DNA of 64,000 bases from an uncultured Candidatus Saccharibacteria bacterium (lineage in GTDB: Bacteria > Patescibacteriota > Saccharimonadia > CAILAD01 > JADZBC01), in assembly GCA_964413715.1 (NCBI GenBank), contig CAYPSN010000002.1, forward strand, positions 850-64,849. The letters run 5' to 3'. The position numbers were made by a program, and so were the translations under genes. The notes beneath the pieces were generated by a model. The model saw only the letters and a list, made by a program, of their open reading frames with translations, made no database searches and was not told the DNA's origin. Below, piece by piece: positions 1,952 to 51,358 of this stretch (positions within the stretch are counted from its first letter, which is position 1; each line of letters begins with the position of its first letter).

Positions 1952-2386
1952 ATGTTATGCCCATTCTGTCAGCACGATAAAACCGAAGTGTTCAATAGCC
2001 GTAGTACAGCTCATAGCACCCAAGTATGGCGTCGTAGGCGCTGCAAAAGCTGTCACAACGCCTTTACTACCTACGAGGCCTATGACTTAGGCTTTTTAGA
2101 CGTAAAAGACACCCATGGAGCCGTACGTGGCTATAGTCGAGCCCGGCTTTTTAGCAGCGTATATATGGCGTTTGTGGGCAGTAACCTAGAAGACGACCAA
2201 ACTATTGATAACGTTACGGCCACCATCGAGCAAAAGCTGCAGGCGCTGCAAAAACCACTTCTCCACCGTGATGAAATCATCGCGATAGTCGTAAAAACCA
2301 TTCGACCGCTCAGCATTACAGCCACTATGCGGTACCTGGCTGACCATACTCCAACAGATAGCAAAGACCCCTCTCGCCTACTTTAA
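1952..2386 (+). CDS. nrdR: transcriptional repressor NrdR (zinc ribbon + ATP-cone)
   Basis: MLCPFCQHDKTEVFNSRS...CKSC zinc ribbon followed by an ATP-cone-like region; size 144 aa. Confidence 0.8.
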   Translation: MLCPFCQHDKTEVFNSRSTAHSTQVWRRRRCKSCHNAFTTYEAYDLGFLDVKDTHGAVRGYSRARLFSSVYMAFVGSNLEDDQTIDNVTATIEQKLQALQKPLLHRDEIIAIVVKTIRPLSITATMRYLADHTPTDSKDPSRLL

Positions 2387-2501
2387 ACAACTTAACTTTC
2401 ATGCTTTCGTATGAATTGTAAGTAACTAATCGCGACGCCTATCCTGCAAAACACACTTATACTGAGTGAACATTATTTGCGTAATTTCGAACTCCAAATA
2501 C

Positions 2502-2529
2502 GTCATTCCGAGCTTGTCGAGGAATCTGC
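2502..2529. repeat. left arm of perfect 28-bp inverted repeat flanking the GIY-YIG gene
   Basis: GTCATTCCGAGCTTGTCGAGGAATCTGC; exact reverse complement at 2842-2869. Confidence 0.9.
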
Positions 2530-2799
2530 CGCCAAATCCTTTAGGCCAGGGTTTATACTGCGGGCTAAATTAAGTTTCTTACTGCGTCGCCAGCCTTTCA
2601 GTTGCTTCTCTCGGGCTATAGCTTCATATATATCCCGTGCTGCCTCAAAGTACATCAGCCGATCCACACTATATCGCGAGGTAAAACCATGTACTGTTTT
2701 TGATTTATGCTCATAAACCCGCCTCTGCAAGTCATTTGTTACGCCAATATAAATCGTGCCGGTCTTGCTGGCCAACATGTAAACATATGCACCGTTCAT
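2503..2799 (-). CDS. GIY-YIG nuclease family protein (UPF0213-like)
   Basis: MNGAYVYMLASKTGTIYIGVTNDLQRRVYEHK...YFE motifs. Start moved to the ATG at 2799, because the upstream extension in the ORF track is translation of the inverted repeat. Confidence 0.75.
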   Translation of the reverse strand: MNGAYVYMLASKTGTIYIGVTNDLQRRVYEHKSKTVHGFTSRYSVDRLMYFEAARDIYEAIAREKQLKGWRRSKKLNLARSINPGLKDLAADSSTSSE

Positions 2800-2841
2800 G
2801 CCTATAAAAATATATAGCCTTATAAAACTAGGCAAGCATAT

Positions 2842-2869
2842 GCAGATTCCTCGACAAGCTCGGAATGAC
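2842..2869. repeat. right arm of perfect 28-bp inverted repeat flanking the GIY-YIG gene
   Basis: GCAGATTCCTCGACAAGCTCGGAATGAC = reverse complement of 2502-2529. Confidence 0.9.
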
Positions 2870-3097
2870 ACGGCTAAGCTTTGAAGGGCGAAAAGGTTTT
2901 CCGACCACGGGTTCGCAAGCTAGGATTCATCTCATGCTTCGACTTATTAGCATTCAACTGCGGGATCGCTATCGCTAAGTCCTCGCCGAAGCTGAAGTTC
3001 TCAGATTCGCTGATCCTGTTGCTCCAAGGTCGGGGTAAGCTCCAGAAAACAGAAAAGACCCCGAGTTGGGGTCTTTTCTAAGTAGTAGAGAGCAGGT

Positions 3098-3769
3098 TTA
3101 CTCTTTAGCTTCACCTTCAGTGGCTGCTTCACCGCCTTCGCTGGCCTCACCCTCTTCGGCAGGTACAGCATCACCCACTTCGCTATCAAGCTCTTCAAGC
3201 TCTTCTTCGCTACGTGGCGGTTCTACCTTGGCAACAAGCTCTTCGGCATCAGTAAGAACCTCTACGCCTTCAGGAACTGTAAGATCAGCTACTGTAATGG
3301 TCTTTTCGAAGTCATCTAGCACTGCGATGTCGACTTCGATGTTCGACGGAAGCTTACCAGGCAAACATTCAATTTCCAGTTCACCTAGAGGTGTTACCAG
3401 ACTACCACCATCTTGGAATACAGCTGTTGATTCGCCAACAGTAACCAATGGCACTGAAGTGCGTACTACTTCGTCCATCTTTACGGTATATAGGTCGGCA
3501 TGCAATGGGAATGGTGCGTGCACACCGTGCTGAACGTCCTGAATAAGGGCATTTTTCTTGCCATCGCCTTCGATTTCAATCTCTAAAATGGTGCTGTGAC
3601 CAACGTGGGCGTAGAGTTTTGCAAACTCTGCCGCATCAACGCTTAAATTAACTGCTTCGCTACCCTGGCCGTACATTACGACTGGCATTCTCCCAGCTGT
3701 ACGCAAAGAAGCGAGTTTTTTACCTGTAATATCACGTTTTTGTGCTTTTAGCACGACTACATCTGTCAT
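3098..3769 (-). CDS. rplY: 50S ribosomal protein L25 / general stress protein Ctc, with acidic C-terminal tail
   Basis: MTDVVVLKAQKRDITGKKLASLRTAGRMPVVMYGQG... L25/Ctc fold signature; E/A/G-rich tail. Confidence 0.85.
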   Translation of the reverse strand: MTDVVVLKAQKRDITGKKLASLRTAGRMPVVMYGQGSEAVNLSVDAAEFAKLYAHVGHSTILEIEIEGDGKKNALIQDVQHGVHAPFPLHADLYTVKMDEVVRTSVPLVTVGESTAVFQDGGSLVTPLGELEIECLPGKLPSNIEVDIAVLDDFEKTITVADLTVPEGVEVLTDAEELVAKVEPPRSEEELEELDSEVGDAVPAEEGEASEGGEAATEGEAKE

Positions 3770-4181: not shown

Positions 4182-4229
4182 AAAAGTACTCCCTCTTGCA
4201 CTAAAGCATAGCATTTTCGCTCACTCGCG

Positions 4230-5309
4230 TCAATCTGAAGCGGTAGTGTTGGCTTGTTTTTTACGCCTTAGCAGCGTTAAGGAGAGAATAAGTATTGCTA
4301 AAATTACAACTAACAGACCAAAGGCCATAATTTTCTGTGAGCTGGAAGCCACCAGAGCAACAATCCCGAAGACAATTGAGAAGGCGTAGATAACCAAAAC
4401 GGCCTGGCGCTGACTGAGCCCAACGTCGAGCAACAGGTGGTGAATATGCCCCCTGTCGGCACTGAATGGTGAGCGGCCAGCTGCCACCCTACGCACGACT
4501 GCCCAAAATGTATCAACAATTGGCAGACCAAGTACGAGCATGGCGGTAGCCAGCTTTGCACCCGAGAATATAGCAAGAATCCCAATCGTCATACCTAAGA
4601 AGTACGCTCCGCTATCACCATTAAAAATCTTGGCTGGATAGAAATTGTAAACTAAGTAGCCCAAGCATGCGCCGGCTAATACCAAGGCTATGAGTGCTGT
4701 GTTGGGCTGATTTACTCTGGGCCCAACGGCTACAAAGAACATCACAATAGCTGCAATTGCTGCTACTCCACTCGATAATCCATCGAGACCATCGAGTAAA
4801 TTCATGGTGTTGGTCATGCCTACGAGCCAAATAGTCGTTAAAGCCACTGCCACGGCATTAATACTTAGGGTTATCCCTACGATCGGCACCGTCCACTGCG
4901 AGGTATTAAACACAAACGAAGTGCCGAAGGGGTTACTTACGGCGTCAATACTAATGCCAAACCCGATTGCCGCCACCAAGGCCGCCACAACCTGGCCTGC
5001 TAACTTCAGCCATGGGTTCACTCCCCAAACGTCATCGGCCAAACCAATCAGCAGGACCATGGTTCCAGCTACAATGAGACCAACAAATGGCTTCTGGATA
5101 GTGCTTACGAGAGCTAGACTAATGGCCGTAAACGAGGCATAGATGGCCAAGCCACCAGCCCGAGCAATTGGCTTGGTGTGGAGCTTACGCTTTTCCTTGG
5201 AAACCTGATCAACAGCACCAATACGAAAGGCCAATTTACGCACTGCGGGCACCATCAAACAAGCTACAAGTGCAGCGGCTAAAAAGCCGAATACATACAG
5301 CATGGTCAT
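4230..5309 (-). CDS. UDP-GlcNAc:undecaprenyl-phosphate GlcNAc-1-phosphate transferase (WecA/TagO family, MraY-like GT4)
   Basis: 11 predicted TM helices; KLHTKPIARAGGLAIY, ADDVWG, NLLDGLDGL, KIFNGDSGAYFLG, DRGHIHHLLL motifs. Confidence 0.7.
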   Translation of the reverse strand: MTMLYVFGFLAAALVACLMVPAVRKLAFRIGAVDQVSKEKRKLHTKPIARAGGLAIYASFTAISLALVSTIQKPFVGLIVAGTMVLLIGLADDVWGVNPWLKLAGQVVAALVAAIGFGISIDAVSNPFGTSFVFNTSQWTVPIVGITLSINAVAVALTTIWLVGMTNTMNLLDGLDGLSSGVAAIAAIVMFFVAVGPRVNQPNTALIALVLAGACLGYLVYNFYPAKIFNGDSGAYFLGMTIGILAIFSGAKLATAMLVLGLPIVDTFWAVVRRVAAGRSPFSADRGHIHHLLLDVGLSQRQAVLVIYAFSIVFGIVALVASSSQKIMAFGLLVVILAILILSLTLLRRKKQANTTASD

Positions 5310-14145: not shown

Positions 14146-14463
14146 ATGAAGAGACCACCCCGCCCCAGAAGCTTGGATGATGTTAACCAGCTCGTAGCGG
14201 AGCTACTTGAAACTGGTAGGCCAAAGGTAGCGAATCTCCCTATCCTCAACCGAGATGACGCAATCTTAAGAATGCTGGCGCTCATTGGGATTTGCTGGGG
14301 ACGAGACGAAGCCATGCTCGAATCGATCCTGGGTGAAGATGTCAAATTGGTTGATCCAGCAGAGAACGTAAAGTTTGCAGTTCGACAGCAAGACGGCTCT
14401 TACGTATTTGTAGACAAGTTTGACCAACTCAAGTCAACCGTCTACTACATGCTGAGCTCCTAG
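14146..14463 (+). CDS. hypothetical protein (105 aa) flanked by the direct repeats
   Basis: ORF with lower GC than its high-GC neighbours; no recognisable motif. Confidence 0.4.
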   Translation: MKRPPRPRSLDDVNQLVAELLETGRPKVANLPILNRDDAILRMLALIGICWGRDEAMLESILGEDVKLVDPAENVKFAVRQQDGSYVFVDKFDQLKSTVYYMLSS

Positions 14464-51254: not shown

Positions 51255-51358
51255 AGATATAAATTTTCCTTTCTTTACTGGTTATGAGTCATTCTGAATA
51301 TGATTCAGAATCCCTGGTCCTACTAAACGGGTGTTTAGCGAGAGACCCTGAAATCTAT

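Follow-up and report, generated by a model that had tools for sequence, protein, structure and literature searches.

A probable SRM-ssn-SRM locus in a Saccharibacteria genome: a small GIY-YIG nuclease gene between inverted hairpin motifs

The DNA considered in this work, hereafter the window, is a stretch of 64,000 nucleotides from an uncultured Candidatus Saccharibacteria bacterium (GenBank assembly GCA_964413715.1, contig CAYPSN010000002.1, positions 850 to 64,849 of the forward strand), and the element under study is a 368-bp unit in a chromosomal, intergenic setting, in which a small GIY-YIG nuclease gene is flanked by a perfect inverted repeat. The gene is here named ssn, as we compare it with the Ssn nucleases of Neisseria and with the hairpin sites, or SRM, that accompany them. 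A repeat search evidences two arms of 28 nt, 100% complementary and 312 nt apart, which enclose the nuclease gene alone; in both respects an earlier note on the same DNA, made from the sequence alone, is borne out. When up to 3 mismatches are allowed, the 28-mer is found at two sites in the window, the only two copies, versus 0 in 100 dinucleotide-preserving shuffles. The GTCAT ends of the two arms point outwards. The same note had described the arms as overlapping the 5' end of the gene, which proves not to be so: it is the 3' end that one of the arms overlaps, the other being clear of the ATG. The features of the locus are collected in Table 1.

Table 1. Coordinates of the ssn unit, of its neighbours and of a second ssn unit in a related genome (window positions unless stated otherwise; assignment of the arms as SRM is predicted)
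Feature	Position	Strand	Description
28-mer arm	2502-2529	+	sequence GTCATTCCGAGCTTGTCGAGGAATCTGC; exact reverse complement at 2842-2869
Downstream SRM (predicted)	2502-2529	+	reads (C)GTC-ATTCCGAG-CTTGT-CGAGGAAT-C-TGC; spans the final 8 ssn codons (..DSSTSSE) and the TGA stop
Upstream SRM (predicted)	2842-2869	- (coding strand)	same 28-mer; ends 42 nt before the ssn ATG
ssn, single-domain GIY-YIG nuclease, 98 aa	2503-2799	-	ATG 2799-2797, TGA 2505-2503
Spacer with putative promoter	2800-2841	-	TTGCCT 2835-2830, 17 nt, TATTTT 2812-2807, 7 nt to ATG
NrdR	1952-2386	+	neighbour of the ssn unit
Ribosomal protein L25/Ctc (rplY)	3098-3769	-	neighbour of the ssn unit
ssn unit L228	4963-5359 (GCA_964600985.1, contig CAZRJR010000002.1)		between HSP20 and SBP_bac_1 genes

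The window protein matches the GIY-YIG model of Pfam (PF01541, E=1e-16) over residues 4-77, no other domain being found. The mechanically called open reading frame starts at a GTG at 2871, and its residue 28 is the first one covered by the Pfam domain; since the domain boundary and the 98-residue gene calls in relatives agree, the real start is the ATG given in Table 1. A total of 2531 homologues were retrieved, and the catalytic residues are intact: Y7, Y17 and E64, together with R27, H31 and N83, are invariant or nearly so in alignments of 29 and 81 homologues. The nearest solved structures found by sequence are the UPF0213 proteins 1zg2 (E=1e-4) and 1ywl, a weak match that covers the catalytic core only. 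These UPF0213/YhbQ-like proteins are likewise stand-alone GIY-YIG domains of about 100 residues, but belong to a separate subfamily, and we know of no association between them and hairpin repeats. The earlier suggestion of a homing-type module does not agree with a bare 98-residue catalytic domain in which no DNA-binding domain is found and which scores 18 bits against TIGR01453, the model used for comparison with homing endonucleases, for a cut-off of 56; moreover, the characterised members of the Ssn family spare double-stranded DNA. Homing endonucleases of the I-TevI type share with the window protein the catalytic domain and a suspected association with selfish elements, but they additionally possess a long linker with a DNA-binding domain, their substrate is duplex DNA, and they reside in introns or phage genomes. 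Concerning expression of the gene, the geometry of the putative promoter is kept in a relative whose protein is 81% identical (L009: TTGATC-17-TATTTT), and a promoter scanner scores it below threshold in the window. The putative ssn mRNA would thus be leaderless or near-leaderless and exclude the upstream arm.

Read on its GTCAT strand, each arm is made up of GTC, a stem half of 8 positions, a loop of 5 nt, the opposite stem half and a C, the stem pairs being, in order, A-T, T-A, T-A, C-G, C-G, G.A, A.G and G-C. Tandem sheared G.A pairs are stable in a 5'-PyGAPu-3' context. A comparison with Rfam returned no match at the arms, either at gathering thresholds across the whole window or at E≤10 across 2380-3100.

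This arrangement resembles a system that has been described in Neisseria meningitidis, where SsnA, a single-domain GIY-YIG protein of 94 residues (CDD cd10448, GIY-YIG_unchar_3), binds the repeat NTS (CGTCATTCCCGCGMAVGCGGGAATCYRG, a dRS3 subset) as single-stranded DNA only and on one strand only, and cleaves a few nucleotides upstream (5') of it, duplex DNA and RNA being inert (Chenal et al., Nat Commun 2025, PMC11893778). Cleavage is abolished by the substitutions Y6A, Y17A and E64A; mutagenesis of NTS further indicates that cleavage depends most on the three bases that precede the palindrome on its 5' side and binding most on the C that directly follows it, it being non-essential which bases form the loop (PMC11893778). 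Among the Ssn homologues collected in that study, an SRM is found nearby in 71% and on both sides in 42% (PMC11893778). The window unit agrees with this description in several respects. Its protein is of comparable size (single-domain, about 94-98 residues) and its Y7, Y17 and E64 match Y6, Y17 and E64 of SsnA; one oriented hairpin, which begins (C/T)GTCAT and ends ..ATC, stands on each side of the gene; and the arms carry GTC directly 5' and C directly 3' of the palindrome, which are the positions that proved critical upon mutagenesis. When the window arm, CGTCATTCC-GAGCTTGTCGA-GGAATCTGC, is set beside NTS, CGTCATTCC-CGCGMAVGCG-GGAATCYRG, the outer parts are equal (CGTCATTCC ... GGAATC-T-G) and the differences are confined to the inside of the stem, the loop and the last base. 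The two systems differ in that the present host belongs to the Saccharibacteria, within the candidate phyla radiation, and in that the window stem has tandem G.A/A.G in place of Watson-Crick pairs. As regards the host, the best named matches of the PNPase (66-68% identity) are from Candidatus Saccharibacteria and Patescibacteria. The publication makes no mention of Patescibacteria (PMC11893778), and a literature search on GIY-YIG genes with inverted repeats, including the motif as a literal sequence, returned nothing relevant beyond it.

We consider it very probable that the window unit belongs to the Ssn family as an SRM-ssn-SRM locus, each arm being a cognate hairpin site. We infer the enzymatic specificity and the cut positions from homology with the characterised SsnA enzymes. 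Ssn would then ignore its site in duplex DNA, and the GTCAT strand, once single-stranded during replication or repair or in DNA that is taken up or injected, would fold into a hairpin whose stem comprises ATTC/GAAT plus C-G, G.A, A.G and G-C, closed by a loop of 5 nt. Ssn would bind this hairpin and cleave a few nucleotides 5' of GTC; because the arms face outwards, the predicted cuts lie just outside the unit and on opposite strands, at about 2497-2500 (+) and about 2871-2875 (-). The role of such an activity may be the restriction of motif-bearing single-stranded DNA, the maintenance or spread of the unit itself, or both. The repeat is in this way explained by a published system, and its finding is no discovery in itself; the hairpin variant is, on the other hand, outside the published motif.

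In order to place the window among its homologues we have scanned one genome per species, which resulted in 80 loci whose Ssn homologues are 48-63% identical to the window protein and which are distributed over Acidobacteriota, Chloroflexota, Bacteroidota, Cyanobacteriota, Planctomycetota, Nitrospirota, several proteobacterial classes, Clostridia and Patescibacteria. An unbiased inverted-repeat search across homologue genes had already given sequences such as TTGTCATTCCGAGCGTAGCGAGGAATC, TGTCATCCTGAACTTGATTCAGGATCC and TTGTCATTCCTGCGTAGGCAGGAATCTA, and the arm-gene-arm layout recurs across phyla, which answers positively the question, raised in the earlier note, of whether GIY-YIG homologues elsewhere carry similar inverted repeats. 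A hairpin detector, which required GTCA, an 8-position stem counted from its A, 3-7 nt of loop, Watson-Crick pairing at the first four positions and no fewer than 6 paired positions out of 8, found 162 sites in the 80 loci versus 23 in shuffled loci, and the density of hairpins amounts to 2.8/kb within 250 nt of the gene versus 0.13/kb farther out, a difference of about 20-fold. At least one nearby hairpin is present in 47 of the 80 loci, and hairpins on both sides in 30. Considering the nearest neighbours only, outward-facing GTCAT, as in the window, is the commonest layout (12 loci versus 8, 7 and 3 for the others), so that 18 of the 30 two-sided loci have a layout other than outward-facing.

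The stems of the 162 sites fall into two classes, perfect Watson-Crick (32) and G.A/A.G at positions 6-7 as in the window (108); the 22 sites left over correspond to the background rate. Between lineages the stem pairs covary, position 3 being T-A in 26, C-G in 23 and G-C in 10 cases, position 5 T-A in 42 and C-G in 19, and position 8 G-C in 49 and A-T in 11, and among 85 distinct hairpins neither GTC nor the 3' C changes while the stem pairs vary; as the detector itself imposes pairing and GTCA, the independent evidence lies in the variety of pair types and in the 3' C only. At four loci (L053, L067, L077 and L091), whose proteins share 57-60% identity with that of the window, the flanking hairpins differ from the Neisseria NTS by no more than 2 mismatches, and in L053, L055, L074 and L077 the upstream and downstream hairpins differ from each other in sequence. 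The nearest protein neighbour shares the hairpin class in 44 of 48 cases versus about 65% expected, a statistic that ignores host relatedness. The odd C-terminal tails noted in many homologues (DSSLRSE, SFDFAQDD, DPSLRSG and FLDGLGMT, in P0003, P0005, P0010, P0016, P0018, P0090 and P0091) result from translation of the downstream hairpin, and in 6 of the 80 loci the GTCA of the motif provides the TGA at which the gene stops, which is also the case in the window.

The closest relatives allow the forces acting on gene and arms to be compared. At the same rplY-ssn-nrdR locus, 14 metagenome contigs encode proteins with 93% (P0001) or 81% (P0002) identity to that of the window. The gene is under purifying selection, as inferred from a ratio of nonsynonymous to synonymous substitution rates (dN/dS) of 0.19 between the window and the 93% identical relative, and from the comparison with L009, the 81% relative, in which synonymous sites are saturated (proportion of synonymous differences, pS, 0.76) at a dN of 0.14. 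In L009 the DNA outside the arms can no longer be aligned to the window, while the upstream arm is identical at 26 of 28 positions, both differences being at loop positions. The two arms of L009 differ mutually at three loop positions and at position 26, which is Y in the published motif consensus (PMC11893778). In the 93% clade (L001, seven contigs) both arms end in ..CTGT and in the window clade both end in ..CTGC, and this concerted change at position 28 also swaps Ala to Thr in the Ssn tail. Arm variation among the window, L001 and L009 is thus restricted to loop or degenerate positions, as predicted for a protein-recognised hairpin under selection; the sequences indicate that the arms are maintained by selection, with some gene conversion between them.

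Two further hairpins of the same family were observed in L009 between ssn and nrdR (1681-1705 and 1730-1753; also in L010-L014), one of them being of a different subtype (GTCATCCTGAGCGAAGTCGAAGGATC). Solo motifs have therefore been gained or lost beside the unit within this lineage.

Outside the neighbourhood of ssn genes, the exact 25-mer of the arm, GTCATTCCGAGCTTGTCGAGGAATC, is present in at least 120 metagenome contigs (L105-L224) whose G+C content ranges from 31% to 71%. An ssn homologue lies within 300 nt of it in 3 of these at least 120 contigs, and more than one hairpin of the family is found in 37 of 120 such loci. This is what one would expect of a dispersed, protein-recognised repeat, and as a dispersed repeat the sequence indeed behaves outside the window; its identity in such different organisms points to very tight recognition constraints or to horizontal spread.

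A number of observations weigh against the assignment of the window unit to the Ssn system. Using DNA parameters in ViennaRNA, the isolated arm folds at only -1.7 kcal/mol, with the outer five pairs alone and no better than shuffles, and the proposed 8-position stem depends on tandem sheared G.A pairs, to which the energy model assigns no stability; as no stable hairpin is credited by this model, the support for it comes from the comparison across lineages. The published SRM search string, HGTCWYN(0-2)YYVSBRHN(0-5)WNVSBRGN(0-2)RNCYNB, a heuristic derived from 29 genomes that carries no functional definition (PMC11893778), has no match anywhere in the window. Also, the comparison of the window protein with SsnA (CAX49033.1) and cd10448 is one with their published description, and the tandem-G.A hairpin is a predicted Ssn site. 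Finally, the 64 kb window contains no dispersed SRM, in contrast with the hundreds of dispersed copies in Neisseria, so that the transformation-restriction role seen there may not apply.

With respect to the search string, the window arms escape it because of their G.A/A.G stem positions. Across the 80 loci the string misses all 108 tandem-G.A hairpins and recognises 7 among the 32 with perfect stems. The tandem-G.A class, which accounts for 108 of the approximately 140 hairpins flanking the closest homologues, is therefore never matched, and it is probable that much of the family has escaped the published counts of SRM and Ssn-SRM associations. This class also suggests candidate enzyme/site pairs for single-stranded-DNA tools. 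As for dispersal, the window indicates that the Ssn family reaches the Patescibacteria and that the gene can occur with its own two sites alone; two self-flanking sites only are a misfit to the restriction of transforming DNA as in Neisseria, and a better fit to self-maintenance of the unit.

The alternative that survives best is that the 368-bp unit is an autonomous, very small insertion sequence, with Ssn as the transposase or nickase and the hairpin arms as ends, moving by a 'peel and paste' mechanism. The authors of the family paper have themselves likened NTS-ssnA-NTS to an insertion sequence or to a REP/RAYT pair, as a hypothesis only (PMC11893778). Terminal inverted repeats that enclose a nuclease gene alone would be expected of such an element, as would the predicted cuts just beyond both ends on opposite strands, and the distribution of the unit at the nrdR-rplY locus is indeed discontinuous. 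It is present in L001 (NrdR 91% identical to that of the window) and in L009 (85%), and absent from L098/L099 (87%), where no hairpins are found either, and from L100 (80%), L095 (74%) and L096 (68%); populations with and without ssn coexist in samples ERZ28655916 and ERZ27309396. Further, the metagenome-assembled genome of L096 (GCA_964600985.1), with an empty nrdR-rplY site, carries elsewhere (L228 in Table 1) an ssn homologue with 63% identity to that of the window, whose hairpins likewise face outwards. The downstream hairpin there departs from the window arm at two loop bases only, and the upstream one has a compensated stem change (ATCCC../..GGGAT).

Several results speak against transposition. 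The flanks, ..CCAAATAC / unit / ACGGCTAAG.., display no target-site duplication beyond a trivial AC/AC, as had already been remarked, and none is seen in L009. The empty site is not clean, given that in L098 the segment corresponding to 2414-2883 (about 470 bp) is replaced by about 115 unrelated nucleotides, with no clean empty-site boundary. The window has one ssn and two arms in its 64 kb, and a second ssn copy within 3 kb was found at 1 of the 80 loci only. The unit has stayed at the rplY-nrdR locus through a divergence that saturates the synonymous sites of ssn, which also contradicts the recent insertion proposed in the earlier note. Flanking hairpins are in many loci direct-oriented or in arrays, and no strand-transfer or ligation activity is known for a GIY-YIG domain of 98 residues, Ssn included. 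The idea of a small mobile or selfish element consequently stands in part, namely in the partnership of arms and nuclease, in the presence/absence pattern and in the second locus, but it finds neither a target-site duplication, nor a clean empty site, nor multiple copies; similarly, of the features that had been listed as speaking against such an element, a single copy is what the window has, but relatives that lack the unit at this locus, and arms that change in concert, run counter to the others.

Comparison with established elements leads to a similar balance. REP/RAYT pairs (REPtrons) also combine a single-copy nuclease gene with inverted flanking copies of a recognised single-stranded hairpin and with dispersal of the repeat elsewhere, as is generally known and as the family paper cites (PMC11893778), but the window protein has a GIY-YIG and not an HUH/Y1 fold and the window has no REP-like dispersal, so that the resemblance is architectural only. 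Elements of the IS200/IS605 type are likewise very small units with subterminal hairpins recognised on one single strand and cleaved at a short distance; however, their hairpins lie on the same strand and a Y1 HUH transposase carries out the joining, whereas the hairpins of the window are inverted. To our knowledge there is no joining chemistry for GIY-YIG enzymes of the Ssn type. The overall pattern fits movement or independent acquisition over evolutionary time, short of showing transposition, and we regard an autonomous insertion sequence at this locus as rather unlikely. The same doubt applies to a broader proposal, by which SRM-ssn-SRM units would be autonomous elements that move via single-stranded DNA and form a new minimal class of insertion sequences, the Saccharibacteria copy being the bare element that precedes any spreading of solo hairpins and the tandem-G.A hairpins a second specificity class so far unrecognised; this is an improbable reading. 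Presence, absence and a second locus among Saccharibacteria nonetheless constitute concrete material on whether such units move.

Far less probable is that the arms act as RNA, the ends of the ssn transcript pairing in a 28-bp stem that controls translation or stability. When 2880-2495 is folded as one RNA, the 28-bp stem closes (minimum free energy -133.6 kcal/mol, z = -5.7), but the pairing follows trivially from the repeat. In agreement with a stem, position 28 has changed jointly, being C:G in the window clade and T:A in the seven contigs of the L001 clade, and 2 of the 4 arm-to-arm differences in L009 would be G.U pairs; the former change is equally explicable by gene conversion, and the L009 arms would in addition hold two C.A mismatches. 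Occlusion of the start codon, the form in which an RNA stem had been suggested, is contradicted by the position of the arms, neither of which overlaps the ATG, the upstream one ending well before it (Table 1). A conserved putative promoter moreover lies inside the arms, between the upstream arm and the ATG, so that this arm is probably outside the mRNA. Across the family the paired hairpins often differ, as in L053, L055, L074 and L077, and most two-sided loci are not outward-facing; also, SsnA does not interact with RNA (PMC11893778). The remaining view, that the arms are a functionless product of chance or of recent local duplication around a housekeeping UPF0213/YhbQ-like GIY-YIG gene, could invoke that the only solved structures found by sequence are of that kind and have no known repeat association, but is refuted for practical purposes, as a 28-mer inverted repeat is not expected by chance, the arms are conserved in relatives whose neighbouring DNA is scrambled, the same motif architecture surrounds homologues across phyla, and the exact 25-mer recurs in the at least 120 unrelated contigs. 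The assignment to the Ssn family is accordingly the one that we retain.

Other candidate sites in the window were examined and rejected. A hairpin at 51288-51311 (GTCATTCTGAA-TATGA-TTCAGAATC), intergenic between a UDG-family gene and that of RNase J, was considered as a solo SRM and discarded, as relatives read GTTCAT. It is kept at the same site in L225-L227 with variable loops, and two of these three have an A-to-G change after which the pair survives on the minus strand alone, as G.U; rather than an Ssn site, it is probably an ordinary RNA hairpin belonging to the RNase J leader. Detector hits at 14234, 17346 and 21920 were dismissed as corresponding to the background rate.

Among the other ssn loci, L021, from a metagenome-assembled Terracidiphilus genome, is the sole one of the 80 with a second ssn within 3 kb (3001-3270 and 4209-4481); several identical hairpins occur there at a spacing of about 600 nt, a possible duplication of the unit. 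The L228 unit adjoins five T4SS_pilin/TrbC genes and TrbL, possibly a conjugative or DNA-transfer context that would produce single-stranded DNA; the genes next to the L228 unit have no counterparts in the 64 kb window.

Regarding the genes that border the unit, the window NrdR (144 residues) matches in Pfam the N-terminal zinc-ribbon model only, while more distant NrdR homologues of similar length match the ATP-cone model PF03477 too; in this lineage the C-terminal domain has either diverged or degenerated. On the opposite side, a block at 2884-3050, located between the upstream arm and the rplY terminator (3050-3080), has 86-92% nucleotide identity in L098, L099, L001 and L096, whereas the flanking NrdR and L25 proteins of the same contigs are merely 68-87% identical at the amino acid level. 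The ssn unit begins 15 nt away from this block, which is mostly deleted in L009 and for which Rfam gives no match up to E≤10. The minus strand of the block folds into an extended, rod-like hairpin (CCGACC...GGTCGG); it is a candidate conserved non-coding RNA, 6S-like or other.

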